From the NCBI GenBank assembly GCA_024226235.1, contig JAAELW010000122.1, forward strand, positions 7,953 to 71,952: 64,000 bases of DNA, read 5' to 3'. Source of the DNA: a bacterium (GTDB taxonomy: Bacteria; Myxococcota_A; UBA9160; UBA6930). Position numbers and translations under genes: made by a program. The notes beneath the pieces were generated by a model. It worked only from the letters and a program-made list of their open reading frames with translations, ran no database searches and was not told the origin of the DNA. This document shows positions 1,933 to 20,220 of this stretch, piece by piece (positions within the stretch are counted from its first letter, which is position 1; each line of letters begins with the position of its first letter).

Positions 1933-3558
1933 ATGAGCCTGGTCGGAAGTCTCGAGGACCTGGGCCTCGACGACATCCTGCAGATCATCAGTCTCTCCGG
2001 AAAATCCGGAGTGCTGGCTCTGCAGGCCGATGAAGGTGGCGGAAAGATCCTTTTCGAGGAGGGTCGGATCTGTTCTGCTCTGGTCGAAGGTGGACCGGTC
2101 AGCGTGGCCGAGCTGCTGGAGAGTCGGAGCCTGCCATCTGCTGATCAGATTGCAGCCGAAGAGCTCGAGGCTGCGATCTCAGATCATGTCGAGAGCTGTG
2201 TACTTCGCATGTTCACGTGGTCCGCGGGCGAGTTCAGCTTCGAGGTCGGGGCCCCCGCAACACAGGATCTTCGTGGGTTGACATTCGAACCCGGCTTCAA
2301 CCCCCAGTTCCTGGCACTCGAAGGAACACGCCGGGCCGATGAGCTCATGGCTGCTGGGCGGGGTCCAGCAGAAGAGCTGGCTGCCCCGGAGCCGGATGGC
2401 GATATCGGTTTCGAATCGGCGCCGGAGCCTGAAGAATCGCTGGCTGATCTGGTGTCGGCGCCGGAGCCTGAAGAATCGCTGGCTGATCTGGTGTCGGCGC
2501 CGGAGCCTGAAGAATTGCTGGCTGATTTGGTGCCGGCGCCGGAGCCTGGGGGAGTGCGGCCCGAACTGGATGCGGAGAACCTGGCGGTTCTCGCCGATTC
2601 TCCTGCTCTTCCGCCCCTCGTGTTCATCGATCCGGATCTCGCGATCGTGGAATGGGCGCGTTCGTCGCTCCCCGAGGAGCTGGCTGCGGCCCACCTCTTT
2701 CAGCTGACGGAGCACGGGATCAGCCGGATTCGTCAGTACCTTCGTCGAGCGGAGGTCCCTTTGGTAGTTCTCTCCGCATGTGCGTTGGCGGATCCGACAT
2801 CCGGAGCGCGGACGCCAGCCGAGGTCGTCGAGCGGCTCCTTCGGCAGGCACCGCAGATGCGCATCCTGATCCTCGAGGAGGCCGGTCGTCCGATCGCGCC
2901 CGGTCTCGAAGCCCAGACCCAAGGGCGGGTCGACAAGCCCTCAGCGATCCAGCTCACCGATCCATCGATGGCACCTGCTCGCGAGCGTCTCGGACACGAG
3001 CTCACTGGCGTGATTCGGCGGGTCTGTGAGATGGAGCCTTCTGCTCCGCCGCCGGTCGTCGAAGACCTGCGGCAGATGAGCATGCAGCTTCGGGAGTCGG
3101 CGGCCTCCGGGGAAGTCCTTCCGAGGGTGATCGAGTTCGCATCGCGAATCTTCTCGAGAGTTGCCCTCTTCATGGTTCGCGATGACGAGGCGGAAGGCAT
3201 TGCCCAACACGGGCTTCCGCTGGCAGGCGGCCCGGACGATGCCGGGATCCGATCCCAGAGCCTTCACGTTTCCGAGTGTGCCGATCTTCGCAAGGTGATC
3301 GAACACCGTGCACCCGTCTGGATGGCCGGGGAAGGCGGTGAAAGCCGGCTGATGGCCGGGCTGGCGACGGTTCCGCCGCAGGAGGCGTGGCTGGCTCCGA
3401 TCGAGATTGCCGACCGGGTGGTTGCCGTGGTCTATGGCGACATGCTTCCCGGTGAAGAGCCGATTCCGGATACAGCGGCGCTCGAGGTCGCGCTGCACCA
3501 CGCCGGTCTGGTCCTGGACCGTGCCGCGCTGGAGCGGGCTCTGGAAGAGCCCGGCTAG
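1933..3558 (+). CDS. PATAN (DUF4388) domain protein with acidic tandem repeats, a receiver-like middle region and a GAF-like C-terminus
   Basis: The N-terminus GSLEDLGLDDILQIISLSGKSGVLALQADEGGGKILFEEGRICSA matches the PATAN/DUF4388 signature. There are 3.5 copies of SAPEPEESLADLV. The C-terminal ~150 aa (RIFSRVALFMVRDDEAEGIA..VVAVVYGD) looks GAF-like. The gene sits directly upstream of cheY/cheA. Confidence 0.8.
   Translation: MSLVGSLEDLGLDDILQIISLSGKSGVLALQADEGGGKILFEEGRICSALVEGGPVSVAELLESRSLPSADQIAAEELEAAISDHVESCVLRMFTWSAGEFSFEVGAPATQDLRGLTFEPGFNPQFLALEGTRRADELMAAGRGPAEELAAPEPDGDIGFESAPEPEESLADLVSAPEPEESLADLVSAPEPEELLADLVPAPEPGGVRPELDAENLAVLADSPALPPLVFIDPDLAIVEWARSSLPEELAAAHLFQLTEHGISRIRQYLRRAEVPLVVLSACALADPTSGARTPAEVVERLLRQAPQMRILILEEAGRPIAPGLEAQTQGRVDKPSAIQLTDPSMAPARERLGHELTGVIRRVCEMEPSAPPPVVEDLRQMSMQLRESAASGEVLPRVIEFASRIFSRVALFMVRDDEAEGIAQHGLPLAGGPDDAGIRSQSLHVSECADLRKVIEHRAPVWMAGEGGESRLMAGLATVPPQEAWLAPIEIADRVVAVVYGDMLPGEEPIPDTAALEVALHHAGLVLDRAALERALEEPG
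2416..2550 (+). repeat. in-frame 39-bp tandem repeat (2 identical copies, 1 variant, 1 partial copy)
   Basis: tcggcgccggagcctgaagaatcgctggctgatctggtg occurs at 2416-2454 and 2455-2493. A variant lies at 2494-2532 and a partial copy follows to about 2550. The unit encodes SAPEPEESLADLV. Confidence 0.9.
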
Positions 3559-3729
3559 CCCGGGCTTCGAGCGCAAAGAGCCCGGTTGGCCCGGGGCTTT
3601 GAGGGCAGATTTCCACGCCCGCGGGGCAGCGCAGTGAACCGGGGAACCCTGTGTGCTCTCTCAAGAAATCCCCCTAGTCGGCCGATGCGCAGGCCTTACC
3701 AGAGGGCCCTTCGGGCCTGGGAGGGAAGG

Positions 3730-4113
3730 GTGGCGCGCATCCTCATTGTCGAGGACTCCGGCACGATGCGGAGCCTGCTGGTTCAGGCGCTCGAAGGCGT
3801 AGACCCGAACGTCAAGATCGATGAGGCCCAGAACGGCTTCGAGGCGCTGCGCATGCTGCCGCGAGAGCGCTACGACCTGATCCTGACCGACATCAACATG
3901 CCCGACATCAACGGACTCGAGCTTGTGTCGTTCGTCAAGGGCAACGAGACCTACGCGACGATTCCGCTCGTGATCGTGTCCACGGAAGGATCGGAACGCG
4001 ATCGCGCGAAGGGGCTCGATCTCGGGGCAGAGGGCTATCTGGTGAAACCCTTCGAGCCGAGGGAACTCCAGGAACTGGTCGCGGATCTCCTCGATTTGAG
4101 CCAGGGAGGCTGA
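3730..4113 (+). CDS. cheY: chemotaxis response regulator CheY
   Basis: Single receiver domain: ILIVEDSGTMR, DLILTDINMPDINGLELV, PLVIVSTEG, YLVKPF. The GTG at 3730 follows a GGAGGGAAGG Shine-Dalgarno-like run, so the 3586 ORF-track start is probably an upstream extension. Confidence 0.9.
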   Translation: MARILIVEDSGTMRSLLVQALEGVDPNVKIDEAQNGFEALRMLPRERYDLILTDINMPDINGLELVSFVKGNETYATIPLVIVSTEGSERDRAKGLDLGAEGYLVKPFEPRELQELVADLLDLSQGG

Positions 4114-4119
4114 GGGCCC

Positions 4120-6234
4120 GTGGCTGCTTCGGGAAAGGAAAGCGCCGGCTCAAAGGCCCAGCGTGAGTTCGTCTCGGAGGCCGAAGACATCCTCGAGCGG
4201 ATGCGCGACGATCTCTCGGAACTCGCCGAAGCCGCAGGGGGCGGTGCAGAGCCCGACCCGGATCTGATCAACAGTCTCTTTCGGTCGGCTCATTCGCTGA
4301 AGGGACTCTCGGGCATGTTTGGCCTCGAGAGCCTCGGTGAGCTGGCTCATCGCCTGGAAGACCTGCTCGACGGTCTGCGCATGGGCCGACTGGTGCTGGG
4401 CGCCGACGGCCTGGCATTGTTCGATGACGCGATCGAAACCTTGAGTACCGCATTGGTCGAGCTCCAGGCTTCGGAGATCGGCACTGCAACGCGCGAGACC
4501 ATTGCGGAGCTGTTGGGGAGGATCGAGGGGTTTGGCGGGAACGAATCTGCATCGGAAGATGCATTCGGCGATTTGGCGCTTCCGTCGTCGATCCTTCGCG
4601 CACTCACGGAGTACGAGGAGCACCGGCTACGCGACAATCTTCGACGTGGTCGGGGCATCTATGTCGTCGGGGTCGATTTCGAGATTGCCAACTTCGAGCA
4701 AGGTCTGGCGGAAGTGACGGCCATGATCAAGGAGGTCGGCGAGATCCTCTCGACGCTTCCGTCGCCAGGCGAGACGCCCGATTCCCAGATCCGCTTCTCG
4801 CTGTTGACCGGCACAGACCTTTCCGCAGCAGATCTCGCGACTCGGCTGGAACTGCATCCGGATTCCGTCGAGACGGCAATGGCTCCGTGCCCGTCGTCGA
4901 ACACCGCGCCCACACCGGAGTCGTCTCCGGCCCTGACGAAACCCGAAGACGAGGATCAGCCGTCGGAGCCTCAGCGGGAGGCCGTGCAGGAGTCAGGCTC
5001 GCTCAAGTCGATCAGCGGAACCGTTCGGGTCGATATCCGAAAGCTCGACGAGCTGATGAACCTGGTGGGCGAACTCGCGCTGCAAAAGGGAGCGCTCAAG
5101 CATCTCACCGATCGCCTGACTTCCGAAACCAGCACCCTGGGAGCGGGTACCGAACTCGGGAAGATCTACCGCGGACTGGAGCGCAAGCTGTCGGAACTGC
5201 AGGCCGGGGTTCTCGAGGTGAGAATGGTCCCGCTGCGCCAGGTGTTCGACAAGCTGGTCCGCGTGGTGCGCCGTCTGCGTCTGGATCAACGCAAGGAGGT
5301 GCGACTCGAGGTTCACGGTGTGGACACGGAACTCGACAAGCTGATCGTAGAGGAGCTGGTCGACCCGCTGATGCATCTGGTTCGCAATGCCTTCGATCAC
5401 GCAATCGAGCCGCCGGCTGAGCGTATTCGTGCAGGAAAGGAAGCTGAGGGCACGATCCGTCTCGAAGCGACCCAGCGCGGCAACGACGTCGTGATCACGC
5501 TTTCCGACGACGGCCGTGGAATCGATACCGAGCGGGTTCTGGAACGCGCCCGAACACAGGGGCTGGTGGATGCTGAAGAGGAGTTCTCGGAACGGGAGAT
5601 CCTCGATCTGGTCTTCCACCCGGGTCTGTCGACCCGTGAGGCGGTGACGGAAACCAGTGGGCGCGGCGTCGGAATGGACGTGGTGCGATCGAATATCGCT
5701 TCTCTCGGCGGGATCGTGGATATCGAGTCGACGGCCGGTCGAGGGACGACAATCACCCTCACATTGCCGATCACCCTGGCGATCATCCAGGCGTTGATCA
5801 TTGGTGTCGGTGAACACCACTTCGCCGTGCCACTGAACTCAGTACGTGAAACCCTGCTTCTGGATCGCTCGGAAATTCAGAGCAGCGAGGGAAGGGAGAT
5901 CCTGAACCTGCGGAGTGAGCCCCTGGTCGTCAAGCGGCTGGCTCGGGAATTCGGGATCGAAGAGGAGGCCCGCGGAGCAAAGATCTACGTCGTCGTTCTC
6001 GGGATGGGCGACGCGCGGATGGGGTTGATCGTCGATCGACTGGAGGGGCAACAGGATGTGGTGATCAAGCCGATCCAGGGGCCCGTCAGCAATGTGCGGG
6101 GCATTGCGGGTGCCACCGAACTCGGAGAACAGGGTGCCGTGCTGGTGCTCGATGTGTCGGCTTTCATCGAAGACCTGGGTCGTCGCACGGTTCCGATCTT
6201 CGACCGGAGTCGAGTCCGCCGGAGTGACGCATGA
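4120..6234 (+). CDS. cheA: chemotaxis histidine kinase CheA
   Basis: HPt motif FRSAHSLKGLSGMFG. Dimerisation and HATPase regions are present (HLVRNAFDHAIE, DDGRGID, GRGVGMDVV). A C-terminal CheW-like domain is present. The stop overlaps the cheW start (ATGA at 6231). Confidence 0.95.
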   Translation: MAASGKESAGSKAQREFVSEAEDILERMRDDLSELAEAAGGGAEPDPDLINSLFRSAHSLKGLSGMFGLESLGELAHRLEDLLDGLRMGRLVLGADGLALFDDAIETLSTALVELQASEIGTATRETIAELLGRIEGFGGNESASEDAFGDLALPSSILRALTEYEEHRLRDNLRRGRGIYVVGVDFEIANFEQGLAEVTAMIKEVGEILSTLPSPGETPDSQIRFSLLTGTDLSAADLATRLELHPDSVETAMAPCPSSNTAPTPESSPALTKPEDEDQPSEPQREAVQESGSLKSISGTVRVDIRKLDELMNLVGELALQKGALKHLTDRLTSETSTLGAGTELGKIYRGLERKLSELQAGVLEVRMVPLRQVFDKLVRVVRRLRLDQRKEVRLEVHGVDTELDKLIVEELVDPLMHLVRNAFDHAIEPPAERIRAGKEAEGTIRLEATQRGNDVVITLSDDGRGIDTERVLERARTQGLVDAEEEFSEREILDLVFHPGLSTREAVTETSGRGVGMDVVRSNIASLGGIVDIESTAGRGTTITLTLPITLAIIQALIIGVGEHHFAVPLNSVRETLLLDRSEIQSSEGREILNLRSEPLVVKRLAREFGIEEEARGAKIYVVVLGMGDARMGLIVDRLEGQQDVVIKPIQGPVSNVRGIAGATELGEQGAVLVLDVSAFIEDLGRRTVPIFDRSRVRRSDA

Positions 6235-6731
6235 GCAGTGTGGCCACGCCGGATTTCGCCTGGGATGAGCTTGCACGGGCTGCCACCCGCCTCGGAGACG
6301 AGGCCGAGGCGGAGGTCTTTCACGAATTCCTGGCCTTTCCGCTCGGTGCCGATCGCTATGCACTGCCGGTCGATCGGGTCAGGGAGGTGGTGCGATTGCG
6401 CCAGATCACCCCCGTGCCTCGGGTCCCTGCGGATATCCTCGGAGTCATCTCCTTGCGCGGTGAGATCGTGCAGGTTCTGGATCTCTCCCAGCGGCTGGGA
6501 GGTTCGATTGGCCTGCGGACGCCCACCTCCCGGATCGTGGTCCTGCATGGCAGGGAAGGCGACGCGGCGGGCCTGCTGGTGGAAACGATCGCTTCGGTTC
6601 TGCGAGTGCCCGAACATGCATTCCGGGACGCTCCGGACAGCGATACCGATTTCGTTTCGAGGCTCTGTGAGGACGAAGGTGATTTCGTCTCCATTCTGAA
6701 CCTCGAGAAGGTGTTGGACCTTGGCGAGTAG
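6231..6731 (+). CDS. cheW: chemotaxis coupling protein CheW
   Basis: 166 aa CheW fold: FLAFPLGADRYALPVDRVREVV, VPADILGVISLRGEIVQVLDL. Confidence 0.9.
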   Translation: MSSVATPDFAWDELARAATRLGDEAEAEVFHEFLAFPLGADRYALPVDRVREVVRLRQITPVPRVPADILGVISLRGEIVQVLDLSQRLGGSIGLRTPTSRIVVLHGREGDAAGLLVETIASVLRVPEHAFRDAPDSDTDFVSRLCEDEGDFVSILNLEKVLDLGE

Positions 6732-7212
6732 CGTACTCACGGCCAATGAAGGGCAGATCGAACTGGCCTGCTTCGAGATCGAAGGCCAGGTCGTCGGCAT
6801 CGATGTCTTCCAGATCCGGGAGATCATCCGGAACCAGGAAACGACGCCCCTTCCGAATGCGCCTGCACTGATCGAAGGTGTCATCGATCTGCGAGGCCAG
6901 GTGATCCCCGTCATCGATCTGGGGCGCGCGTTGGCTCAAGGCTGCTCCAAGGGCGGCACTTCTGCACGGATTGCAATCGTCGAGATCGAAGAACTGATAT
7001 TTGGGCTGCGGGTGGATGCAGCCGTGGATGTGCTCTCGGTGGCATCCGGGACCATCGAGGGGCCGCCCGCGCTGGCCACGCATTCCGGATATGCCGCAAT
7101 TCGTGCGGTCGTACGTTGCAAGGACGCACCTCCGGTGATGGTGCTTTCCCTGGACCAGATCCTGGAGAGCGTCTACCGCTCGAACTCGCGAGCAGGGGAG
7201 GAACCGCGATGA
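6721..7212 (+). CDS. cheW: second CheW-like coupling protein
   Basis: 163 aa: LACFEIEGQVVGIDVFQIREII, APALIEGVIDLRGQVIPVIDL. The TTG start at 6721 overlaps the upstream cheW by 11 nt. Confidence 0.85.
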   Translation: MASSVLTANEGQIELACFEIEGQVVGIDVFQIREIIRNQETTPLPNAPALIEGVIDLRGQVIPVIDLGRALAQGCSKGGTSARIAIVEIEELIFGLRVDAAVDVLSVASGTIEGPPALATHSGYAAIRAVVRCKDAPPVMVLSLDQILESVYRSNSRAGEEPR

Positions 7213-9788
7213 CGGAGCTGGCCTACGGGAGTGGCAAGGCATTCCAGAGGCGTCACGTTCTGGGGTGGTCGCTGATCAGTCTCTCCGGGGCGGTCCTCAG
7301 TGTTGCCTACCTCGCGACGGTTCTGATCCTGACACCGGAGCAGTGGTCGGCGTTCGGGCTTGCAGGTGGTATTGCGGCCGCTGGGTTGACTGTCTTTGCC
7401 CAGGCTCTGCAGCGCCGCTTCTCACGACCGATTCTGGATGCAATCGACGCGATCGCAGCGGGCGATTCAGCCCCCGATGGATTTCGGATCGCCTTCGCCC
7501 GGCTCACACACCTGCCCTATCGGAGCGCGCGTGACACGCTGATCGTCTGGAGCGGCGCCGCGATCTTCGTGCCCTGCTTCCTGGCCGTTGCCCTCGAATC
7601 GGTCTCGATCTTTACCTGCATTGCGATCGCAATGGCCACGCTAAGTGGTGGAACGATCGCCGCGGTCTTCATGTTCTTCGGCATCAAGCAGATGGTCGCG
7701 CCGCTCGTGGACGAATGGGCCCAGAGCCTTCCGGACGGTTCAGAACGCGCCGAGTTGATGCCTGACGTCTCTCTCTCGACGAAGCTCGCAGTACCCCTGC
7801 TCGCGGTATCGACCGTGACGCTCTCCTTTGCGCTTCTGCTCTCCTATGCATTGGCGAGCCGGCCTGTCGAAGCCCAGGATGTACGTGTCAAACAGGCCTA
7901 CTTGGAGTACTCGGTCGATGAGTTGGCCAAGGACGCCGATGCAATCGGGCGCTTGCGTGAGATCGGCGCCGCCTTCTCCGCGACCCATGCGATGTTGATC
8001 ATCGATCGCCGGCAAAGGGCGATCGTCGACGGACCCCCGGACGGTATGCGACCTGCGGAGATCGAGTGGCTTCTCGGACAGACCGAGGAAGCGACTGGTG
8101 AAAGCACGGGCTTCGACTCCCCGAACAGTTTTGCCTGGCTGAACCTGGAAGCTGACGGTCGGAGGGTGTTGGTCGCGGTCACCCCGGGTTCGGTCTTCGC
8201 TGCAGATCAGCTGGCTACGAGCATGGCCTTCGCAGGCGTGACGTTCATCGCCCTGATGATCACATTCCTCACCTGTCGGGCGCTCGCCCGGGATGTCAGT
8301 GTGACGACCCAGCGCCTGATCGGTCGGGCCGAGCGGATCGCCGATGGAGATTTCCTCGCGCAGGACGTGGTCGAATCGGAGGATGAACTCGGAGTCCTGG
8401 GGCGCACCTTCGACCGGATGGTGGACTCACTGCGCGAGATGCTCGGGCGAGTGGCTGCAGCCGCTGACGGTCTGGATCGGGCCGTCAATGATCTCGGGGC
8501 AATCGGTGAGGCGGTGACGACGGCGACCGACGATCAGCGCGCAGACATCGAGCAGGCGACCGCCCAGGTGGCTGCCGTCAACCACAAGGTCTCGCAGATC
8601 ACCGGGAACGCCCAGGCGTTGAACGCCAACGTCGAAGAAGCCAGTAGCTCGATCCTCGAGCTGGGTGCCGCGAGTGAGCAGCTGAACCAGACCGCCACGA
8701 CCCTCAGCAGCCACGTCGAAGAGGTGGGGGGGTCGATCGAGCAGATGATTCGCAGCGTCGCGCAGGTGGGGGAGAACACGGAAGGATTGGTTGCGGGCGT
8801 GTCCGAGACTGCCAGTTCGATGTCGGAAATGGCGGTGGCGATGACCGAGGTGGATACCAATGCCACCCACGCTGCCGGCCTGTCTTCCCAGGTGGTCGAG
8901 CTCTCCGAGCGAGGGCAGGAGCGCGTCCACGAGACGATCAGCGGCATGGAAGCGATTCGAGACACGACCGAGACCGCAGACGAGGTGATCGGGAGTCTGG
9001 CCGGACGCATGGCCGAGATCGGAGCAATCGTCGACGTGATCGACGACGTCGCAGACGAGACCAACCTGCTGGCGCTGAATGCAGCGATCATCGCCGCCCA
9101 GGCAGGTGATCAAGGCCGCTCGTTTTCGGTCGTCGCAGAGGAAATCAAGGATCTGGCGGATCGCGTACTCAGCAGCACCAAGGAAATCGGTGAGCTGATC
9201 CGGGCCGTGCAAAACGAAACGGCGAACGCTACCGAGGCGATCGGTCGTGGAACGGAGCGCGTGCTGAGCGGTGTAGAGCTGGCGGCCGAGGCCGGACTTG
9301 CACTCGAGGAGATCACCGGCGCCGCACGGGGCTCAGGAGGCCGCATCCAGGAGATCGTTCACGCAGTACGCGAGCAAGCGGGAGCGGCTCGGCATGTGGC
9401 GGGCCTGATGGACCACGTCAGTGCGCAGGTCGAAGACATCCAGGAAGCCGGTCGGGAGCAAGAGCGCGGAAATGATGTGATGGTTCGCGGTGCCCATGTG
9501 ACCCGTGATGTCGCCCAGCAGACCCAACGAACGACTGAGGAGCAGTCGCGGGGAGCAGGGCGGATCCGGCACAGCATGGAGAGTATTCGCGACACCGTGG
9601 ATCAGATCCACGCCGGGCTGCAGGAGCAGACCCATTCGTGTCGCTCCACAGTGTCATTTTTGGAGCAGGTCTTCGAACGGACCTGCTCTAACGAGGAATC
9701 GTCTCTTCGTCTCGCCAATGCGACTCGTGCGCTGGGCGAGCAGGCTGCAGCCCTGCGCGACGGCGTGAACCGGTTCCGGATCCAATGA
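7209..9788 (+). CDS. methyl-accepting chemotaxis protein with a multi-pass N-terminal membrane region and HAMP
   Basis: The ATG at 7209 overlaps the cheW stop (ATGA). Several hydrophobic segments lie in the first ~380 aa. A HAMP-like stretch is present (RIADGDF..ELGVLGRTFDRMVDSL). The signalling hairpin reads ETNLLALNAAIIAAQAGDQGRSFSVVAEEIKDLADRV. Confidence 0.92.
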   Translation: MTELAYGSGKAFQRRHVLGWSLISLSGAVLSVAYLATVLILTPEQWSAFGLAGGIAAAGLTVFAQALQRRFSRPILDAIDAIAAGDSAPDGFRIAFARLTHLPYRSARDTLIVWSGAAIFVPCFLAVALESVSIFTCIAIAMATLSGGTIAAVFMFFGIKQMVAPLVDEWAQSLPDGSERAELMPDVSLSTKLAVPLLAVSTVTLSFALLLSYALASRPVEAQDVRVKQAYLEYSVDELAKDADAIGRLREIGAAFSATHAMLIIDRRQRAIVDGPPDGMRPAEIEWLLGQTEEATGESTGFDSPNSFAWLNLEADGRRVLVAVTPGSVFAADQLATSMAFAGVTFIALMITFLTCRALARDVSVTTQRLIGRAERIADGDFLAQDVVESEDELGVLGRTFDRMVDSLREMLGRVAAAADGLDRAVNDLGAIGEAVTTATDDQRADIEQATAQVAAVNHKVSQITGNAQALNANVEEASSSILELGAASEQLNQTATTLSSHVEEVGGSIEQMIRSVAQVGENTEGLVAGVSETASSMSEMAVAMTEVDTNATHAAGLSSQVVELSERGQERVHETISGMEAIRDTTETADEVIGSLAGRMAEIGAIVDVIDDVADETNLLALNAAIIAAQAGDQGRSFSVVAEEIKDLADRVLSSTKEIGELIRAVQNETANATEAIGRGTERVLSGVELAAEAGLALEEITGAARGSGGRIQEIVHAVREQAGAARHVAGLMDHVSAQVEDIQEAGREQERGNDVMVRGAHVTRDVAQQTQRTTEEQSRGAGRIRHSMESIRDTVDQIHAGLQEQTHSCRSTVSFLEQVFERTCSNEESSLRLANATRALGEQAAALRDGVNRFRIQ

Positions 9789-9804
9789 ACGTCAGGAGAA
9801 CAAG

Positions 9805-10905
9805 ATGATTGCGGCTTGTCCCACATGTGCGGCCCGCTACCGGATCGACAAACACAAACTCGGAGACAAGGGCGCTCGGCTTCGCTGCTCGCGCTGTGAA
9901 TCCGTCTTTCGCGTGCGCGCGCCCACTTCCCAGCCTGCGGAAACTTCCGTTTCTTCTGCCAACCAGCAGCCTGCGGAAGCTCCGGTTTCTTCCGTCGAGC
10001 AGCGGCCTGCGGAAGCTCCGGTTTCTTCCGTCGAGCAGCGGCCTGCGGAAGCTCCGGTTTCTTCCGTCGACCGGCAACCTGTGGAAGTCCCTGTTTCTTC
10101 CGCCAACCAGGACCCGCCGGAAGAGAAGCCGCGGGCGCAGATCGTCATCGCGATGCCCGATGCCGAGGTCGCCAAGAGGACAGCCGATGACCTCAGCGCC
10201 CGCGGTCTCCACAGCATGGTGGTCTTCGACGGGGTCGATGCGATGCTCGAAATCCAGCGCCAGGAGCCGGTCGCGGTCTTGTTGGCTGCAGAGCTTCCGA
10301 AGATGTTCGGCTTTCAGGTCTGTGAGATCGTGAAGCGTAACGCGAGCCTGCGCGGCATCCACGTCGTACTCGCTGGAACCGTCCACCATCCGGAACGCTA
10401 TCGGCGGTCGCCTTCGGAATTCTACGGTGCCGATTCCTACGTCGAGGTTCCGGATCTGCCCGGGGCACTCGCCCCAGTGCTGGTGGAGGCTGGAATCCTG
10501 TCGCCAGAGAATCCTCCGCGAGAAGAGCCGTCGCCCGTGCCGGAGCGGTCAGAGCCGAGTCCGCCGGCCGAAGCGCTGGAGCGGCCTGAGATATCGGGTC
10601 CGGCGCCGACGCAGCCGAAGCAAGAGGAGCCGGCTGCAGCTTCGGCTTCACCGTCTCCGCAGCTCCAAGAAGAGCAAGCCCAGGCAGAGCGCCTGGCTCG
10701 CATCATCGTGTCAGACATCGTGCTCTACAACGAGGAGAAGTTCGCGTCCGCCGTGCAGGCCGGCGACGTGGCGGAGGCGATGGCCGCTGACCTTGCTGAG
10801 GGGCGGGGATTGTTCGAGCAGCGGATCGACGAGAAAGTGAGAGGCAAGGGCGATCACCTCCTGGAAGAATTATTGCGGGTCGCCCGTGCTCGCGGGATGC
10901 AATGA
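9805..10905 (+). CDS. MJ0042-type zinc-ribbon protein with 12-aa tandem repeats, a receiver-like domain lacking the phospho-acceptor Asp, and a conserved helical C-terminus
   Basis: CPTC..(19 aa)..CSRC Zn-ribbon at the N-terminus. Five copies of (Q/R)PAEAPVSSVEQ-type units. A receiver-like region has AVLLAAELPKMFGF where receivers carry D-x-x-MP. The C-terminal motif is AERLARIIVSDIVLYNEEKF. The stop overlaps the next start (ATGA at 10902). Confidence 0.8.
   Translation: MIAACPTCAARYRIDKHKLGDKGARLRCSRCESVFRVRAPTSQPAETSVSSANQQPAEAPVSSVEQRPAEAPVSSVEQRPAEAPVSSVDRQPVEVPVSSANQDPPEEKPRAQIVIAMPDAEVAKRTADDLSARGLHSMVVFDGVDAMLEIQRQEPVAVLLAAELPKMFGFQVCEIVKRNASLRGIHVVLAGTVHHPERYRRSPSEFYGADSYVEVPDLPGALAPVLVEAGILSPENPPREEPSPVPERSEPSPPAEALERPEISGPAPTQPKQEEPAAASASPSPQLQEEQAQAERLARIIVSDIVLYNEEKFASAVQAGDVAEAMAADLAEGRGLFEQRIDEKVRGKGDHLLEELLRVARARGMQ
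9931..10110 (+). repeat. in-frame 36-bp tandem repeat, 5 copies
   Basis: The units encode QPAETSVSSANQ, QPAEAPVSSVEQ, RPAEAPVSSVEQ, RPAEAPVSSVDR and QPVEVPVSSANQ. The central copies are nearly identical at the DNA level. Confidence 0.9.
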
Positions 10906-12974
10906 GCTTCGTGGACAGGGACCAACACGATCATCTGCTTTACGATCTGAGGAGTTCGGACGACGAGGTTCGTCGGCTCGCGGTCGAACGGCTTACGACG
11001 CTTCCGCCGAATGAAGCGATTCCCGCTCTCGTTGCGCAGCTCGCGGATCCGAGCTGGCGCGTCAGGAAGGCTGCCATCGAGCGACTCTCGGAGACCCCCG
11101 AGACGTCGGCCGCAATCCCGGCGTTGGTCGAAGCCCTGGCCGATGGCGAGAATCCCGGCCGGCGCAACGCCGCGCTCGAGACGTTGACGCGATGCGGCTC
11201 CTCGGCCCTGCCAGTGCTCTTCGATGCGTGTCGCGGCCCGGATGTCGATGTACGCAAGCAGGCGGTGGATGCATTGGCGGGGATCGGAGATCCCGCAGCA
11301 GTCCCCCGTCTCCTGGAAGTGCTGTCCGACCCGGACCCGAACGTGCGCGGTGCCGGCGCGGAAGCCCTGGGCTGTGTCGGGAATGAAGACTGCCATTCGA
11401 TCCTACTGCGCCTCGTCAGCGCCGATCCGGAAATCCTCGTACGGTTGTCGGCGCTTCGGGCCCTCGATCGACTCGAAGCCCAGGTGGATACGGCCGAGTT
11501 GCGCTGCGCATTGGACGAATCCCTGCTTTGCGCTGCGGCCTACGCGGTATTGGGCCACAACGACGAGCCGGGCTCCGTGCAGGTGCTCTTGAAAGGGTTG
11601 GAGAGCGGAGGTCGGTCGACCCGAGAGGCAGCCCTCCAGGCGTTGGTACGTATCTGTGCACGTCCGGGGAGCGAGAACGAGGCTCGGGCAACCGAGGTGA
11701 AACAGGCGATCGGGCCGGAAGGGGAAGCGTTCGCGTTCACCACGGCTCAGGTTCGCGAAGGCGACCTCCCCGTGCGGCTGGCAGCCGTCCAGATTCTCGG
11801 ACTGCTGGGTCATGCCGAAGCTGTGGTGCCGATGCTGGATGCGGCCTGCGACGAAGCGCTGTCGGAGGTCGTGCTCGCGGCCCTGGAATCCATGGGCCAG
11901 GCGGTCGTTCCGCCGATCGAGATCGGCTTCGACGATCTCCTTCCGGAAGAACGCCGGATGGCCTGCCGCGCTCTGGGCGCCGCACCTGGTGAGCCAGCTC
12001 GTGGAGTTCTGCTGCGTGCGCTTGCCGACACGGAACATCAAGTGCGGGCCGATGCTGCGCGCGCTCTCGGCCGGCACGGAATGCTCGAGCCGATCGCAGA
12101 GTTGGTCGCTCTACTCGGTGCCGCCGCTCGAGAGGGTGGAGAATGGGGAAACGAGGAGCTGGCCGCATCGACTGCGGCTCTTCGAGCCATCGGGTCGAAT
12201 GATCCGGCTCCCGTGGTCGAGGCCCTGGAGGAGTGTCTCCCCGAGGAGGGGAAGGTCTTCCGGCTCGCAGCAACCGAGGTGATCGGCGCTGTCGGCGACT
12301 CCCGGCAGCTCGAGTTGCTGACGCGGTTGGCCGCCGACCCCGAGCCTCCGGTTCGTCGGGCCGCTGTCGAGGGAATCGCTTCGGTCTCCACGACTCCGCC
12401 GCTCGAAACGTTGCGCCTTGCTCTGGCGGATGAGGACGTGGGTGTGCGGATCGGTGCTGCTCGCGCACTCACGGTCTCGGCTGATCCGGAGGTGATGGCC
12501 GATCTGGCACATCTGACGGAGGATCTCGACCAGCGGGCGCAAGCCGCGGCATTTCGGGCCCTGGGACGCTGGGCTTCACGACATGGGATGGAGCAGGCAC
12601 GGCCGCAGATTCTCGAGCTGGTATCGGCTGCCATTCGCCGGGGAGGGACTCCCGCGATGGCCGGTCTGGAGGTATTGGATCGGCTCGGTGGCGGAAGTGC
12701 GGCCACGCTGGCGACCGCGGCATTGGGGGCGGACGATGCAGAGCTCGTGATGGCTGCCATCGGTTGTGTGGGGCGGCATGCAGAGACGCTGGCGCTTGCC
12801 GAACTCCTGCCTCTGCTGACTCATGACCATTGGGCCGTGCGTGCCCAGGTGGTGGATGTACTTGCGGAAAGGCGATCCCACACGGCGGTTCCGGCGATTC
12901 TCCGAAGGTTGGAGTCCGAGACCGATGAGTTCGTCCGAAGCGCGATCTTCAATGCGTTGGACGCTCTCGAGTAG
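10902..12974 (+). CDS. HEAT-repeat (PBS-lyase-like) protein, 690 aa
   Basis: Repeated ~30-aa units of the type D.D..VR..A..AL(G/A)..G...A.P.L...L.D run along the whole length. Examples are DPSWRVRKAAIERL, DVDVRKQAVDALAGIGDPAAVPRLLEVLSDPDPNVRGAGAEALG and HWAVRAQVVDVLAE. Confidence 0.85.
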   Translation: MSFVDRDQHDHLLYDLRSSDDEVRRLAVERLTTLPPNEAIPALVAQLADPSWRVRKAAIERLSETPETSAAIPALVEALADGENPGRRNAALETLTRCGSSALPVLFDACRGPDVDVRKQAVDALAGIGDPAAVPRLLEVLSDPDPNVRGAGAEALGCVGNEDCHSILLRLVSADPEILVRLSALRALDRLEAQVDTAELRCALDESLLCAAAYAVLGHNDEPGSVQVLLKGLESGGRSTREAALQALVRICARPGSENEARATEVKQAIGPEGEAFAFTTAQVREGDLPVRLAAVQILGLLGHAEAVVPMLDAACDEALSEVVLAALESMGQAVVPPIEIGFDDLLPEERRMACRALGAAPGEPARGVLLRALADTEHQVRADAARALGRHGMLEPIAELVALLGAAAREGGEWGNEELAASTAALRAIGSNDPAPVVEALEECLPEEGKVFRLAATEVIGAVGDSRQLELLTRLAADPEPPVRRAAVEGIASVSTTPPLETLRLALADEDVGVRIGAARALTVSADPEVMADLAHLTEDLDQRAQAAAFRALGRWASRHGMEQARPQILELVSAAIRRGGTPAMAGLEVLDRLGGGSAATLATAALGADDAELVMAAIGCVGRHAETLALAELLPLLTHDHWAVRAQVVDVLAERRSHTAVPAILRRLESETDEFVRSAIFNALDALE

Positions 12975-12976
12975 TC

Positions 12977-13903
12977 ATGATGTGCGAGCGAGACGAGATC
13001 TCTCTTACCGATGCGGAGTTTCGCATGTTCCGGGATTTTTTCCGGGACTATTGCGGCCTGCATTTCGGAGAGGACTCGCGCTTCCTGCTCGAGAAGCGCC
13101 TGGCCCGTCGGGTGCGGGAGCTCGATCTCGGGAGCTTCTCCGCCTATCACTATCTGCTGCGCAAGGCGGGGCAGGGTGAGCAGGAACTCGGGCACGCCAT
13201 CGACGCACTCACGACGAACGAGACGTACTTCTTTCGCGAACGCTCCCAACTCCAGGCGCTCGTGGAGGAGATCATTCCCGAATGCCTCGAGCGACGCCGC
13301 AAGCGGGGTGGGCGAATGCTCAGCATCTGGTCCGCGGGTTGCTCGAGCGGCGAGGAGCCGTACTCGATCGTGATGATGGCCAAGGAGGCTGGCCTCGTGC
13401 CAGGCGACGATTTCCGCGTTTACGCGTCGGATATTTCAGGTGCCATCCTTCAGAAGGCCCGCAACGGGTTGTATCGGCCAGCCTCGTTTCGGGAAGGCCT
13501 GGATCACCTGCAGAAGAAGTACTTCGAGGAGCAGAGTGGCTTGTGGCGGGTTTCCGATGAAATCAAGCGCCACGTGGTCTTCACGCGGGTCAACCTGTTG
13601 GACAAATCACGCGCGGATCTGCTGGGCGCGATGGATGTGATCCTCTGCCGGAATGTGATCATCTACTTTGATCTCGAGACCAAGCGAGAGGTCATTGGTC
13701 GCTTTCACGACAAGCTGCCGCCCGGTGGCTATCTGCTTCTGGGCCACGCAGAGTCGTTGATCAATGTGTCGAGCGCCTTCAGCCTCACCCATCTGAAACG
13801 GGACATGGTCTACCGCCGCCCGCTTCCTGGTGAGGAGCTGCTCGATCCCTGGCATGCGGCGGCCCGGGCCGCGATCTCTCCGATGGAGCGGGAAGAGGGA
13901 TGA
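12977..13903 (+). CDS. cheR: chemotaxis protein methyltransferase CheR
   Basis: Motifs TTNETYFFRE, IWSAGCSSGEEPYSI, ILCRNVIIYFD. Confidence 0.93.
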   Translation: MMCERDEISLTDAEFRMFRDFFRDYCGLHFGEDSRFLLEKRLARRVRELDLGSFSAYHYLLRKAGQGEQELGHAIDALTTNETYFFRERSQLQALVEEIIPECLERRRKRGGRMLSIWSAGCSSGEEPYSIVMMAKEAGLVPGDDFRVYASDISGAILQKARNGLYRPASFREGLDHLQKKYFEEQSGLWRVSDEIKRHVVFTRVNLLDKSRADLLGAMDVILCRNVIIYFDLETKREVIGRFHDKLPPGGYLLLGHAESLINVSSAFSLTHLKRDMVYRRPLPGEELLDPWHAAARAAISPMEREEG

Positions 13904-14949
13904 AACCGAGCGAGCGCATTCGAGTGCTGGTGATCGATGATTCCGCCTTCACGCGAAGAACCCTGGTTCGCATGCTCGAGGGGTCACCGCTGATCGAGGT
14001 CGCCGGTTGGGCTCGCGATGGCGAAGAGGCGCTTCGCATGGCGCTCGAGACCGATTTCGACCTGATCACGCTCGATCTCGAAATGCCGCGCATGGACGGC
14101 TTCACGTTCCTGCGCATCATCATGGCCAGGAAGCCGACTCCGGTGATGGTGGTGAGCGGGCGCTCCGGGCATCAGGATGTCTTTCGCGCCCTCGATCTCG
14201 GTGCGGTGGATTTCCTCGCGAAACCGAGCCTCCGGATCGGCCCCGAACTCCAGACCATCGAACAGGAGCTGATCCGAAAAGTCCACGCCATCCGGCAGCT
14301 TCGCATCGCCAAGGTGCAGGATCGGATCGGCACCACCCAGGCGCTGGCCGGGCCTTCGGCCGCTCCGGGTGTCCCCCCGCGGGTAGTGGCGATCGGCGCT
14401 TCGACCGGCGGCCCGACGGCCCTGATGCAGATATTCAGTGCTTTTACCGAGCCCCCGAGTTGTGGCTTCATCGTTTCCCAGCACATGCCGAAAGGGTTTA
14501 CCCAGAGCTTTGCGGCCCGCATCGATCGCCTGACGGTTTTTCGGGCACAGGAAGCCGAGACGGGAAGTACTGTGGAGGAAGGCATGGTCCTGGTGGCACC
14601 CGGTGGCAGCCATCTCGAATTTGAAAGCCGCGAGGAATCTTCGCGGGCGATCGTCGTGCCTTCCGTGCCCGGCGACAAATACGCACCCGCGGTTGATCGC
14701 ATGTTCCAATCCGCGGCCAAGATCTTCGGATCGGAGCTGCTGGGAATCGTCCTGACTGGCATGGGTGACGACGGCCGCCGTGGTGCGCAGGCGATTCGTG
14801 AGGCCGGGGGTCGTGTCTTCGCCGAATCCGAAGAGACGGCTGTGATCTTCGGCATGCCGCAGCAGGTGATCCGTGCAGGAGCCGCCGACATCGTGGCGCC
14901 TCTGGGGGAGATCCCCGCTCTGATCCAATCCGGCCGGCCGGCGTCATGA
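13900..14949 (+). CDS. cheB: protein-glutamate methylesterase CheB (receiver + methylesterase)
   Basis: Receiver motifs RVLVIDDSAFTRR, DLITLDLEMPRMDG. Esterase motifs VVAIGASTGGPTAL, GMGDDG. The start overlaps the cheR stop (ATGA). Confidence 0.93.
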   Translation: MKPSERIRVLVIDDSAFTRRTLVRMLEGSPLIEVAGWARDGEEALRMALETDFDLITLDLEMPRMDGFTFLRIIMARKPTPVMVVSGRSGHQDVFRALDLGAVDFLAKPSLRIGPELQTIEQELIRKVHAIRQLRIAKVQDRIGTTQALAGPSAAPGVPPRVVAIGASTGGPTALMQIFSAFTEPPSCGFIVSQHMPKGFTQSFAARIDRLTVFRAQEAETGSTVEEGMVLVAPGGSHLEFESREESSRAIVVPSVPGDKYAPAVDRMFQSAAKIFGSELLGIVLTGMGDDGRRGAQAIREAGGRVFAESEETAVIFGMPQQVIRAGAADIVAPLGEIPALIQSGRPAS

Positions 14950-14961
14950 TGGGGTCCTACC

Positions 14962-15771
14962 ATGAGCAATGACGTGTTCGAGAGAGCAGATGAAGTGCTG
15001 GGCCTGTTCCGTCGGGGTGCAGAGTTCACCCGTGAGCTACTGGAAGAGAACAAGGTGCTCCGGCAACGCCTGGCGCGTGTCGAATCCCATCAGCAGGATG
15101 CTGCGCAGGACAATGGCGAGTGGGACAAGCTGCGCTCCCAACTGCTGGAGCGAATCCAGGGCCTCGAGTGTGAGCATCAGGATGCGATCGAACGAGTGGC
15201 GGTTCTCGAGGACGAGAACATGCAATTCGCAGGTCGGTATCTCGAGATCGAAGAGGAAAACAACGCGCTCGCGAACCTCTATGTGGCGAGCTTCCAACTC
15301 CACTCGACACTCGATCTCTCCGAAGTCTTCAGGATCGTCATCGAGATCGTGATCAATCTGATCGGCGCCGAGGTCTTTGCGGTCTACGCCCTCGACGAAA
15401 AGAGCGGAGTGTTCGAGCCGGTGGCCTCCGAGGGAGTGAAACTCTCCAACGTGCCCACGGTGCAGCTCGGTCAGGGTCTGATCGGCGGATCCGTGACGGA
15501 ACGAGAGACGGCTTTCGCGGATCCGGGGAGCCAGACCGACTTGTCGCGGCCGCTCGTGTCGATCCCGTTATGTGTCGATGATCGCGCCATCGGGGCGATC
15601 GCGATCTTCAAGTTGCTTACCCAGAAGAAGGAATTCAGCCCGCTGGACCACGAGTTGTTCACATTGCTGGCTGGGCATGCGGCGACCGCGATCTTTGCGG
15701 CTCAACTCTATTCTCAGTCGGAACGCAAGCTCAATACCATTCAAGGGTTCATCGATCTGCTGACGAAGTAG
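14962..15771 (+). CDS. coiled-coil / GAF domain protein
   Basis: The N-terminal ~100 aa is heptad-rich (LEENKVLRQRLARVESHQQ..LEDENMQFAGRYLEIEEENNALANLY). A GAF-like region follows (LDLSEVFRIVIEIVINLIGAEVFAVYALDE..GLIGGSV..AIGAIAIFKLL..ELFTLLAGHAATAI). Confidence 0.8.
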   Translation: MSNDVFERADEVLGLFRRGAEFTRELLEENKVLRQRLARVESHQQDAAQDNGEWDKLRSQLLERIQGLECEHQDAIERVAVLEDENMQFAGRYLEIEEENNALANLYVASFQLHSTLDLSEVFRIVIEIVINLIGAEVFAVYALDEKSGVFEPVASEGVKLSNVPTVQLGQGLIGGSVTERETAFADPGSQTDLSRPLVSIPLCVDDRAIGAIAIFKLLTQKKEFSPLDHELFTLLAGHAATAIFAAQLYSQSERKLNTIQGFIDLLTK

Positions 15772-15802
15772 CTCGCTCGTGTGCACCGAGCGGGAGGGGA
15801 CC

Positions 15803-16195
15803 ATGGAACGTCGAAATCGGATCTTGATCGTCGAAGACAGCCCGACCATGCGTCAGCTGTTGATATTCGCACTCAAACGGCTCCGCAACACGGATATCAT
15901 CGAAGCCCAGGACGGGATGGATGGGCTGCGCAAGGTTACGGCAGATGACTACGACCTGGTCCTGGTGGACATCAATATGCCAGTGATGGATGGGCTGAAG
16001 CTGATCAGCTTGATCCGGGGCGAGGAGCGCCTCGAGGAGATGCCCATCGTCGTGATCACGACCGAAGGCGCCAACGAGGACCGCGCCCGGGCGCTCGCGC
16101 TCGGGGCCAACGAGTACCTGACGAAGCCGATCCAGGCGAACAAGGTCCTCCAGGTCGCACGCGGGCTGCTGAAGATCGAATCCCGGTCCACCTAG
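15803..16195 (+). CDS. CheY-like single-domain response regulator
   Basis: Motifs RILIVEDSPTMRQ, DLVLVDINMPVMDGL, PIVVITTEG, YLTKP. The ATG at 15803 follows GGGAGGGG; the 15779 GTG is an alternative start. Confidence 0.88.
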   Translation: MERRNRILIVEDSPTMRQLLIFALKRLRNTDIIEAQDGMDGLRKVTADDYDLVLVDINMPVMDGLKLISLIRGEERLEEMPIVVITTEGANEDRARALALGANEYLTKPIQANKVLQVARGLLKIESRST

Positions 16196-16385
16196 GCCAG
16201 GTCCCCATTTCAGCGGTGTGGGCCGATCGGCTGGGCCTTGACCGAGCCACCCGTCTCACAGGTGCCGACGGCTGCGGTTCTGGCCTCGAAACCGGGTCCG
16301 GTTTCGTCCCCCGAATCGCCCTGGAGCAGATCGCGGCTAGAGATCGGCGGGCGGATCGCAGCCGGGCTGGCTATACCAAGCGGCG

Positions 16386-16913
16386 ATGGCAGGCATCTCG
16401 ATGCGGATTCTGGCGCTCGTATTCCTGGCGACACACCTCTTGGGGTGCGGGTACCAGCTCGTTCGTTACGCCGATCCGGTCGGAGACGCCCGGCGGATCG
16501 CTCTGCAGCCGCTCCTGAACGACACCTTCGAGCCGGGCATCGATTCGCTGCTGCTCGATGCCTTCCATCGGGAGTTTCTGCGACGAGGCGGGCTGCGCAT
16601 CGTCGAGGATCCCGAGACGGCGGATCTGATCGTCGGCGGAGTGATCGACAGCCTGTTGACGCGTGGACGGAGCTTTTCGTCGATCCAGTTCGCTCTCGAG
16701 TACGAGCTCCTCCTTCGGGTCGATCTGGAGGTGACCCGCCCGGATGGAACCCCGGTGCCGATCGATGGGCGGGCCTTCAATGAGTCCGAGATCTACCTGT
16801 CGAGCGCCGATCTCGAGGTGACGCGAACGAATCGGGAGGAGGCGTTGCGGCGGCTCGCCGGGACGATGGCGACGCGTCTCCACGACGCGCTGTACGAGCG
16901 CATTCAGCCTTGA
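16386..16913 (+). CDS. lptE: LPS-assembly lipoprotein LptE
   Basis: Signal peptide plus lipobox (MRILALVFLATHLLGC|GYQL). The length and the position directly upstream of holA are typical of LptE. The start may be the internal ATG at 16401. Confidence 0.72.
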   Translation: MAGISMRILALVFLATHLLGCGYQLVRYADPVGDARRIALQPLLNDTFEPGIDSLLLDAFHREFLRRGGLRIVEDPETADLIVGGVIDSLLTRGRSFSSIQFALEYELLLRVDLEVTRPDGTPVPIDGRAFNESEIYLSSADLEVTRTNREEALRRLAGTMATRLHDALYERIQP

Positions 16914-17926: not shown

Positions 17927-17983
17927 CTTTGGAGCCCCCGGCTCTTCTCTGCCAGAGGGCGCCGCGGATCCACGCCAGCGATC

Positions 17984-18247
17984 TCAGCCGAGCTTGCTGA
18001 CCGCTTTCGCCAACCTGGACACACTGCGGCTGGCGGTCTCGCGCTTTATTACGCCCTTGCTGGCAGCCTTGCGGAGTGTCTTCTCGGCGTCTCGGAGCCG
18101 GGTCTGGGCATCGGTCGCGTCGCCCTCGCTGATCGCGCTTCGCAGGGCCTTCACGGAGGTTCGGACTTCGCTGCGGACGGCCCGATTGCGGTCGCGGCGC
18201 TTCAGCGATTGTCGGACACGTTTTTCTGCGGACTTGTGATTCGCCAC
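17984..18247 (-). CDS. rpsT: 30S ribosomal protein S20
   Basis: 87 aa beginning MANHKSAEKRVRQSLKRRDRNRAVRSEVRT.., a classic S20 N-terminus. Confidence 0.95.
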   Translation of the reverse strand: MANHKSAEKRVRQSLKRRDRNRAVRSEVRTSVKALRSAISEGDATDAQTRLRDAEKTLRKAASKGVIKRETASRSVSRLAKAVSKLG

Positions 18248-18389
18248 CGGTGACTCCCTGCGAGGGCGCGCAGCATAGGCAAATCCACCGGACGTCGCCC
18301 ACGGGGAGGGTCCGGTCCCCTATCAGGGTCATCCCGTGATCGACCGATACCCCGAGGTGAACCCGCCGAGGTGCCTTTCGTTGGTTCGG

Positions 18390-20219: not shown

Positions 20220-20220
20220 A

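Follow-up and report, generated by a model that had tools for sequence, protein, structure and literature searches.

We analysed a 64,000-nucleotide stretch of contig JAAELW010000122.1 (GenBank assembly GCA_024226235.1), referred to throughout as the window, and within it a chemosensory operon at positions 1933 to 16195. The operon holds twelve intact open reading frames (ORFs), all on the + strand and numbered g1 to g12. Annotation with Pfam and NCBIfam profiles placed them in the order PATAN, CheY, CheA, CheW, CheW, methyl-accepting chemotaxis protein (MCP), Zn-ribbon protein, HEAT-repeat protein, CheR, CheB, GAF protein and CheY. A first-pass annotation made from the sequence alone had described twelve co-directional genes in this order, and the profiles bore it out. 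The four ATGA stop/start overlaps that it had listed were exact, at 6231 (g3/g4), 7209 (g5/g6), 10902 (g7/g8) and 13900 (g9/g10), and the remaining ORF junctions in the operon span −11 to +27 nt. Scans for sigma-70 promoter, terminator and sigma-54 patterns gave matches at chance level only and were uninformative on transcription.

The genes cheA, cheW, cheR and cheB are co-located in this one cluster, as in the group beta che clusters discussed below (Pfam: g3, g4, g5, g9 and g10). CheA (g3, 4120..6234) consists of Hpt, H-kinase_dim, HATPase_c and CheW domains and has no receiver; it matched the NCBIfam CheA models at 1e-106 to 8e-122. CheW-a (g4, 6231..6731; Pfam CheW, 9e-30) is followed by CheW-b (g5, 6721..7212; Pfam CheW, 4.5e-29), for which TTG at 6721 is the sole candidate start and overlaps g4 by 11 nt. 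The adaptation enzymes are a CheR methyltransferase (g9, 12977..13903; CheR_N and CheR, 2.8e-55) and a CheB methylesterase with a phosphorylatable receiver (g10, 13900..14949; REC and CheB_methylest, 1.2e-55). There are two single-domain response regulators, CheY-1 (g2, 3730..4113; Response_reg, 2.5e-28) and CheY-2 (g12, 15803..16195; Response_reg, 1.9e-28), and the phosphorylation residues are kept in both of them and in the receiver of g10. The ORF of g2 opens at 3586, but a Shine-Dalgarno-like sequence, GGGAGGGAAGG, and homologues of 124 to 129 amino acids (aa) indicate that the true start is probably GTG at 3730, giving 127 aa. The same kinds of evidence place the start of g12, whose ORF opens at 15779, probably at ATG 15803. 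A 31-nt direct repeat at 3545-3607 (2 copies, 84% matches) covers the g1 stop and part of the g1-g2 intergenic region, upstream of 3730.

The receptor (g6, 7209..9788, 859 aa) is a membrane MCP with HAMP and MCPsignal domains (1.5e-37). A 19-residue window placed its hydrophobic segments at approximately residues 17-43, 49-67, 109-167, 191-217 and 334-360. The tip of its signalling hairpin lies near residue 634, between arms of 222 and 227 aa; this signalling domain is unusually long, at ~64 heptads by length. Compared with the 44H receptor 2ch7, g6 is collinear without gaps over 253 aa and has ~100 aa extra on each side.

Four further proteins (g1, g7, g8 and g11), which we call the accessory proteins, are embedded among these genes. 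Neither Pfam nor NCBIfam revealed a catalytic or DNA-binding domain in any of them, and the first-pass view of an "alternative cellular function"-type Che operon, with four embedded non-canonical proteins and no enzymatic or DNA-binding output, was right. None of the four matched a named NCBIfam equivalog or, by sequence, a solved structure; no PDB sequence matched either g11 or the family profile of g1. The literature that we searched, including later Esn work, gave no account of their function.

The Zn-ribbon protein g7 (9805..10905, 366 aa) is made up of an MJ0042-type Zn ribbon, a Pro/Ala linker, a receiver-like domain and a C-terminal helical domain. The ribbon matched PF13717 (Zn_ribbon_4, E = 8.4e-12) with 45.3 bits against a cutoff of 30.3 and TIGR02098 with 43.2 bits against a cutoff of 20.9. 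In an alignment of 22 homologues, the cysteines C5, C8, C28 and C31 (CxxC...CxxC) were invariant, as were the RYRR/YGAD motifs; the linker was variable, and the helical domain of ~75 residues was highly conserved. The AlphaFold model (predicted local distance difference test [pLDDT] of 79) has a module layout that matches the alignment, with a receiver (beta-alpha)5 fold in residues 110-230, the strands and helices of which (112-228) have pLDDT values >90. Foldseek aligned this central domain with PhoB, MtrA, the receiver of Myxococcus xanthus FrzS and CheY4 (TM scores of 0.75-0.84), and hhalign matched g7 to a CheY profile at a probability of 99.1%. At the equivalents of CheY D12/D13, D57, T87 and K109, however, g7 carries M/P, A, G and V/S/Q, and the acceptor position is variable among the 22 homologues. 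Because the receiver fold is retained and every position of the phospho-chemistry is replaced, we regard the domain as a genuine pseudo-receiver, as first proposed. There is also a weak NCBIfam match of g7 residues 4-66 to GltJ. The linker is encoded by an in-frame 36-nt tandem repeat (5 copies, 86% matches) at 9931-10110, with units of PAEAPVSSVEQR.

The operon opens with g1 (1933..3558, 541 aa), predicted to consist of a PATAN domain, a disordered acidic repeat linker, a REC-like domain and a GAF domain. Pfam identified residues 5-138 as DUF4388/PATAN (E = 1.1e-22). The AlphaFold model (pLDDT of 84) shows PATAN at residues 1-150, disorder at 150-221, an alpha/beta domain at 229-335 and a GAF fold at 375-540, and Foldseek ranked a REC-GAF dual-sensor kinase first and GAF domains next. 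Neither the C terminus compared with the GAF domain of g11 nor the middle domain compared with CheY gave a significant hhalign result; thus the PATAN call of the first-pass annotation stands on a profile match, while its "GAF-like" call and our REC-like call rest on predicted structure. In the REC-like domain, the acceptor-like Asp of the family consensus is a Cys in the window protein. Both ends of g1 are conserved in distant loci. Its linker is encoded by an in-frame 39-nt tandem repeat (3.4 copies, 96% matches) at 2416-2548, with units of SAPEPEESLADLV, and the linkers of g1 and g7 both vary widely in length among homologues.

The other two accessory proteins are simpler in layout. The 690-aa protein g8 (10902..12974) is built of HEAT repeats from end to end (HEAT_2, 1e-73, 7 stretches). 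The 269-aa protein g11 (14962..15771) has an N-terminal helical region and a GAF_2 domain (1.4e-12, residues 117-244); the ~100 N-terminal residues ahead of the GAF domain are conserved, and residues 1-100 gave no domain match. The g11 family comprises 245 cluster representatives at E ≤ 1e-30, and in its members from Geobacter, Thermoanaerobaculia, Nitrospirota and Schekmanbacteria, the next gene was a cheY each time.

The window g7 is 100% identical to a protein of a MAG (metagenome-assembled genome) labelled "bacterium," and its closest relatives are labelled Deltaproteobacteria or Myxococcota. Scanning one genome for each species, we found g7 relatives in 144 genomes. We examined the best 80 loci, all from uncultured MAGs, and compared gene order by tblastn with the window proteins. 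The order was the same in nearly every locus and recurs in ~80 independent genomes, far beyond chance. Forty-three loci span both flanks of the cluster: 30 of them match the window in all 12 genes and their order, in 5 the MCP gene has moved to a position after the last cheY, and 8 carry internal deletions, some down to PATAN, CheY and g7. The accessory genes are thus very strongly conserved beside che genes, so that the objection foreseen in the first-pass annotation, a lack of conservation in related genomes, fails.

The degree of conservation differed among the genes. Median identity to the window protein was highest for CheY-2 (78%), the most conserved gene of the cluster, followed by CheY-1 (68%), CheB (63%), CheR (62%), the GAF protein (61%) and CheA (57%), and it was lower for g7 (43%), the HEAT protein (42%) and the PATAN protein (39%). 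For the neighbouring genes ribH and holA, the corresponding values were 68% and 54%; the GAF protein is therefore as conserved as its housekeeping neighbours across the MAG loci.

Several loci depart from the common form. An additional second MCP follows the last cheY in four loci, and nine are deletion variants at the same site, one of which lacks the HEAT, CheR and CheB genes. Gene remnants have been fused by some of the deletions; examples are a partial CheY run into a partial MCP and the first 550 aa of CheA lying beside g7. We considered whether the reduced PATAN-CheY-g7 loci represent a minimal functional module and rejected this idea, because the loci were found through a search with g7 and several show deletion-type fused remnants.

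All 43 loci occupy one chromosomal site, with ribH, nusB and an M17-N-like gene upstream and (lptE)-holA-rpsT downstream; in the window, these flanks lie at 127-1681 and 16238-18247. The gene directly 5' of the cluster (1043-1681) encodes a 212-aa protein with a Peptidase_M17_N match only (2e-13), that is, the N-domain of an M17 leucyl aminopeptidase without the catalytic domain, and it is kept in 55 loci. Many MAGs with the Myxococcota-type locus are labelled Spirochaetales or Spirochaetaceae (six loci and others), including an isolate named HK-STAS-MYXO-51, and one contig with a bacterial-type che cluster (L089) is filed under Candidatus Methanoperedens; these labels are probably errors of taxonomy or binning.

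A profile built from distant g11 members recovered further relatives in Geobacter, Desulfuromonas, Thermoanaerobaculia, Nitrospirota and Schekmanbacteria. The cluster of Geobacter pickeringii (CP009788) reads PatA_N, CheY, CheA, AAA_22 ATPase, CheW, REC, CheW, HEAT (667 aa), CheR, CheB, GAF and CheY, and downstream of it lie a cytochrome gene and then leuS-lptE-holA-rpsT. By tblastn, the window proteins matched their Geobacter counterparts at 44% identity for CheA (residues 12-683), 51% for CheR, 48% for CheB and 50% for the GAF protein, and residues 7-689 of g8 were collinear with the 667-aa HEAT protein at 31%. Each window CheY matched its positional counterpart best: g2 was 67% identical to the first Geobacter CheY and 46% to the last, and g12 was 61% identical to the last.

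In a Thermoanaerobaculia locus (L084), the order is PatA_N, CheY, CheA, ATPase, CheW, a 282-aa protein, HEAT, CheR, CheB, GAF and CheY; the 282-aa protein has a CxxC...CxxC ribbon of its own and aligns with the pseudo-receiver and C-terminal domain of g7. The order in L089 is PatA_N plus REC, CheY, CheA, CheW, Zn ribbon plus REC, HEAT, CheR, CheB and GAF, with no ATPase. The clusters of two further contigs (L085 and L088) contain MCPs, and the long signalling domains of these align with g6. Contig L087 has a reduced cluster between rib-nusB and leuS-holA-rpsT, without a HEAT gene, in which the g7 homologue sits between a CheA remnant and CheB. A Schekmanbacteria locus (L086) retains a trio of GAF, CheY and PATAN plus REC, without che genes. 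In L084, L088 and L089, a g7 homologue directly precedes the HEAT gene; the two genes overlap by start and stop codons in the window, in L084 and L089 and in one MAG locus (L001), and the PATAN and CheY genes overlap in G. pickeringii, L084 and L089. Across phyla, PATAN-CheY and GAF-CheY adjacency is invariant.

The chromosomal address is thus common to the Myxococcota MAGs, to G. pickeringii on the downstream side and to contig L087 on both sides. We consider it very probable that the cluster is a single operon for a complete chemosensory pathway of the group beta type, and that it has been inherited vertically at the fixed site rib-nusB / (leuS)-lptE-holA-rpsT. Tran et al. described the group beta che cluster in 2008 (PMC2577667). 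They report its conservation among delta-proteobacteria, naming M. xanthus, Stigmatella, Anaeromyxobacter and Plesiocystis, distinguish it from E. coli-like clusters and mention preliminary, unpublished evidence for control of the extracellular matrix. In Geobacter sulfurreducens, the series comprises CheY (GSU2223), CheA (GSU2222, EsnC), an ATPase (GSU2221) and CheW (GSU2220, EsnB), with GSU2224 upstream (PMC5585712, PMC8242959); by gene content and order, GSU2220-2224 is the cluster that we read in G. pickeringii. Deletions of esnB and esnC have phenotypes (PMC5585712), and an effect on electrode colonization or on regulation of the extracellular matrix has been reported for G. sulfurreducens only (PMC5585712, and an unpublished remark in PMC2577667).

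From the biochemistry established for these domain families, a mechanism can be outlined. The multi-transmembrane, long-stalk MCP, the two CheWs and CheA would form a sensing array, which CheR and CheB would adapt by methylation. Phosphorylated CheA (CheA~P) would in turn phosphorylate CheB and both CheYs, in which the catalytic residues are kept. Since no enzymatic or DNA-binding domain is present anywhere, the output should proceed either by protein-protein contact or through unlinked regulators. Gene adjacency and analogy suggest contacts between phosphorylated CheYs (CheY~P) and the accessory proteins paired with them, a tentative proposal to which we give somewhat less than even odds. CheY-1 would partner the PATAN-REC-like-GAF protein g1, in the manner of a "split" PatA-type regulator, and CheY-2 would partner the GAF protein g11 encoded just upstream. 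The translationally coupled g7 and HEAT proteins might serve as an adaptor or scaffold by which the array is held to a polar or polarity factor; alternatively, they might be a target of CheY~P, as in the Che7/Cpc7 pair treated below. We consider some surface-associated behaviour (pili, polarity, matrix or biofilm), rather than flagellar rotation, the likeliest target. For the reading as a whole, we estimate a probability of roughly 0.6.

A number of observations weigh against parts of this reading. The Geobacter cluster has an AAA_22 ATPase gene after cheA, which the window lacks (the G. pickeringii ATPase gave no tblastn match in the 64-kb window, with a best E value of 0.35, and is also absent from L089), and its two cheW genes are separated by a gene for a true 123-aa receiver, for which the window has no equivalent. 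Published group beta clusters are said to have "no mcp genes" (PMC2577667), but the window has g6; this feature fails across the wider family, since the relatives L085 and L088 carry in-cluster MCPs. A fourth departure is that the window has the Zn-ribbon pseudo-receiver upstream of the HEAT gene, whereas the Geobacter cluster does not. As other lineages (L084, L088 and L089) share these departures, we read all four as variation within the class. Moreover, the GAF gene alone is missing in 2 of the 43 MAG loci, and M. xanthus Che8 apparently has no GAF protein, no locus tag being left between cheB8 and cheY8a in the gene tables of PMC3945109. The window contains neither pilus nor polarity genes, and the basis of the output model is gene adjacency together with analogy to distant systems. 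In addition, genetics in G. sulfurreducens point to partners encoded at unlinked loci, since the esnB/esnC phenotype is shared by the MCP EsnA and by the diguanylate-cyclase (GGDEF) response regulator EsnD (PMC5585712), and M. xanthus CheA8 has been implicated in phosphorylating the orphan regulator MXAN_4468 (PMC9040617); therefore, the main output may lie outside the cluster.

These last results support an explanation in which the output proceeds by phosphotransfer to unlinked regulators, such as an EsnD-like GGDEF protein or an orphan CheY like MXAN_4468, while the accessory proteins act as scaffolds, localization factors or modulators of adaptation and the CheYs act as phosphate sinks. The want of any catalytic or DNA-binding domain in the accessory proteins fits such a scheme. 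However, the two CheYs top the conservation of the cluster, the partner gene of each stays the same from phylum to phylum, as would not be expected of simple sinks, and PATAN is an output domain in the sole system in which it has been studied; we regard this explanation as somewhat unlikely. Partners for the CheYs within the cluster are favoured because the CheYs are extremely conserved, their adjacencies are invariant, the trio in Schekmanbacteria survives and g7 is coupled to the HEAT gene. A bolder version of the in-cluster model is that the four accessory proteins and two CheYs make up an ancient non-enzymatic output machine, in which the g7 ribbon anchors the HEAT scaffold to a polarity factor and CheY~P switches g1 and g11 to act on a motor of the pilus or secretion type or on a polarity GTPase module. 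We hold this to be unlikely; if it were true, the beta/Che8 class, kept at one site across several phyla, would exert general control over polarity or surface behaviour, a role so far unrecognized.

Other explanations fare worse. A conventional motility system, with CheYs acting on a flagellar motor encoded elsewhere, could appeal to the complete core set (MCP, CheW, CheA, CheY, CheR and CheB) and to the 83 bits that g12 scored against the NCBIfam model for E. coli-type CheY. That score is far under the model cutoff of 189 bits, and, as the first-pass annotation had stated, there are no flagellar or type IV pilus genes and no CheZ, CheC, CheX or CheD in the window; our scan of its ~45 other ORFs bore this out and found no further che genes. 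The Geobacter orthologues, too, are not near flagellar genes, and group beta is set apart from E. coli-like clusters in the source cited above, making a motility function quite improbable. That the four accessory proteins form an undescribed signalling or output module, as the first-pass annotation had suggested on not recognizing the combination from a characterized pathway, and one specific to this lineage, might seem to follow from the lack of named equivalogs, solved structures and functional accounts. Yet near-identical sets, with the same four types in the same order, occur in Thermoanaerobaculia, Nitrospirota-type and other contigs, three of the four types occur in Geobacter, and the cluster type was described in 2008 (PMC2577667). 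By its content and order the set is not lineage-specific, and this explanation is very improbable; what survives of it is that the proteins are functionally uncharacterized. The suggestion of a new combination does not hold, given the shared set, order and neighbours in G. pickeringii. Finally, a decaying or non-functional remnant would find some parallel in the 8 of 43 related loci with internal deletions, but all 12 window ORFs are intact and full length compared with their homologues, the junctions are coupled and the catalytic residues are preserved, which makes decay extremely improbable.

The remainder of the window holds housekeeping or envelope genes only, as judged from the ~45 non-cluster ORFs. 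Among them are ribH, nusB, holA, rpsT, phoH, ybeY, lnt, prfB, lysS, lolDE, bamA and skp, together with lpxA/I/B/K, kdtA, heptosyltransferases, gmk, relA/spoT, purM and a gene for an HDOD-GGDEF protein. The HDOD-GGDEF protein, which has no receiver, and the RelA/SpoT homologue are encoded at 56711-58363 and 51443-53596, respectively. Downstream of rpsT lies a gene for a 627-aa protein without a Pfam match (18336-20219, + strand), followed by a second DUF4388/PATAN protein (E = 3.8e-26; ~20216-21330, + strand, in an ORF of 19906-21330). Two MAG loci (L001 and L002) have the same pair after rpsT, and of the two proteins, the 627-aa one could be detected in 47 related loci; perhaps the pair constitutes a second PATAN module with a link to the cluster.

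The beta/Che8 class is among the most conserved chemosensory clusters without an assigned function. Our comparisons show that the PATAN, HEAT and GAF proteins, and in many lineages the Zn-ribbon pseudo-receiver, are integral, conserved parts of it and not passengers, and that accessory genes are paired with the two cheY genes in a fixed way. Conservation of the GAF protein and the CheYs is on a par with that of housekeeping neighbours, and the cluster keeps one address from Geobacter to uncultured Myxococcota. Together, these properties indicate a core physiological role. They also yield concrete partner hypotheses that are open to test in the tractable hosts G. sulfurreducens (Esn) and M. xanthus (Che8). 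The window cluster, from an uncultured organism, adds a variant and not a new principle.

Among known systems, Geobacter group beta (cluster 5, GSU2212-2224) shares several features with the window cluster: the order PATAN, CheY, CheA, CheW(s), HEAT protein of 667-690 aa, CheR, CheB, ~270-aa GAF protein and CheY; position-specific best matches at 31-67% identity; and lptE-holA-rpsT downstream. The che8 cluster of M. xanthus is reported to be conserved in G. sulfurreducens (PMC2330069), and from that account, PMC2577667 and the order of locus tags, we infer that group beta and Che8 are the same. In the gene tables of PMC3945109, tags MXAN_4751-4759 run CheY8b, CheA8, CheW8b, CheW8a, two unnamed proteins, CheR8, CheB8 and CheY8a, an order closer to that of the window than the Geobacter form is. 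CheA8 is non-hybrid with a dimerization domain, like the window CheA (PMC3945109). Che8 has no MCP, whereas the window has one. The function of Che8 is still called unknown (PMC9040617).

The M. xanthus Che7 system, which the first-pass annotation had offered as an analogue through its HEAT-repeat protein Cpc7, was a reasonable lead but is not the closest relative. It has a non-hybrid CheA, the order CheY, CheA, CheW, MCP, ... CheR/CheB and an in-cluster HEAT protein (PMC3945109, PMC11514114), all as in the window, and in Che7 the HEAT-repeat protein Cpc7 binds CheY7 as its target (PMC11514114). Mcp7 is cytoplasmic, with neither transmembrane segments nor HAMP (PMC3945109), whereas g6 has HAMP and hydrophobic segments. 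Che7 has one CheW and one CheY, and the window has two of each; no PATAN, GAF or Zn-ribbon proteins are reported for Che7. It is also said to include a desaturase gene.

Cyanobacterial Tax/Pix systems with PatA-type regulators are alike in that a PATAN protein opens a Che-like operon beside a plain CheY. In PatA-type proteins, PATAN is fused to a phosphorylatable receiver, whereas g1 combines it with a GAF domain and a REC-like domain without an evident acceptor Asp, and CheY is a separate gene. Tax/Pix systems control type IV pili; in Synechocystis, PATAN acts as the output domain and binds PilB1 and PilC (bioRxiv 10.1101/2021.06.11.447907). M. xanthus GltJ and Caulobacter ZitP share with g7 an N-terminal MJ0042-type ribbon with Cys at 5/8/28/31 and a low-complexity linker, and their ribbons recruit partners, MglB for GltJ and PopZ for ZitP (PMC11135422). 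This likeness is limited to the ~37-residue ribbon, and g7 has no GYF domain or membrane part. We take PATAN with PilB1/PilC, the GltJ/ZitP ribbons and Cpc7 with CheY7 as leads, by analogy, for the output model. The first-pass annotation had named orthology to a characterized pathway as grounds for setting its proposal aside, and this applies in part: the class is described and partly genetically characterized, while its accessory proteins have no characterization in the literature searched. Taken together, these comparisons suggest that the window cluster is orthologous to the beta/Esn/Che8 class, already described and partly characterized by genetics, and would work in the same way.

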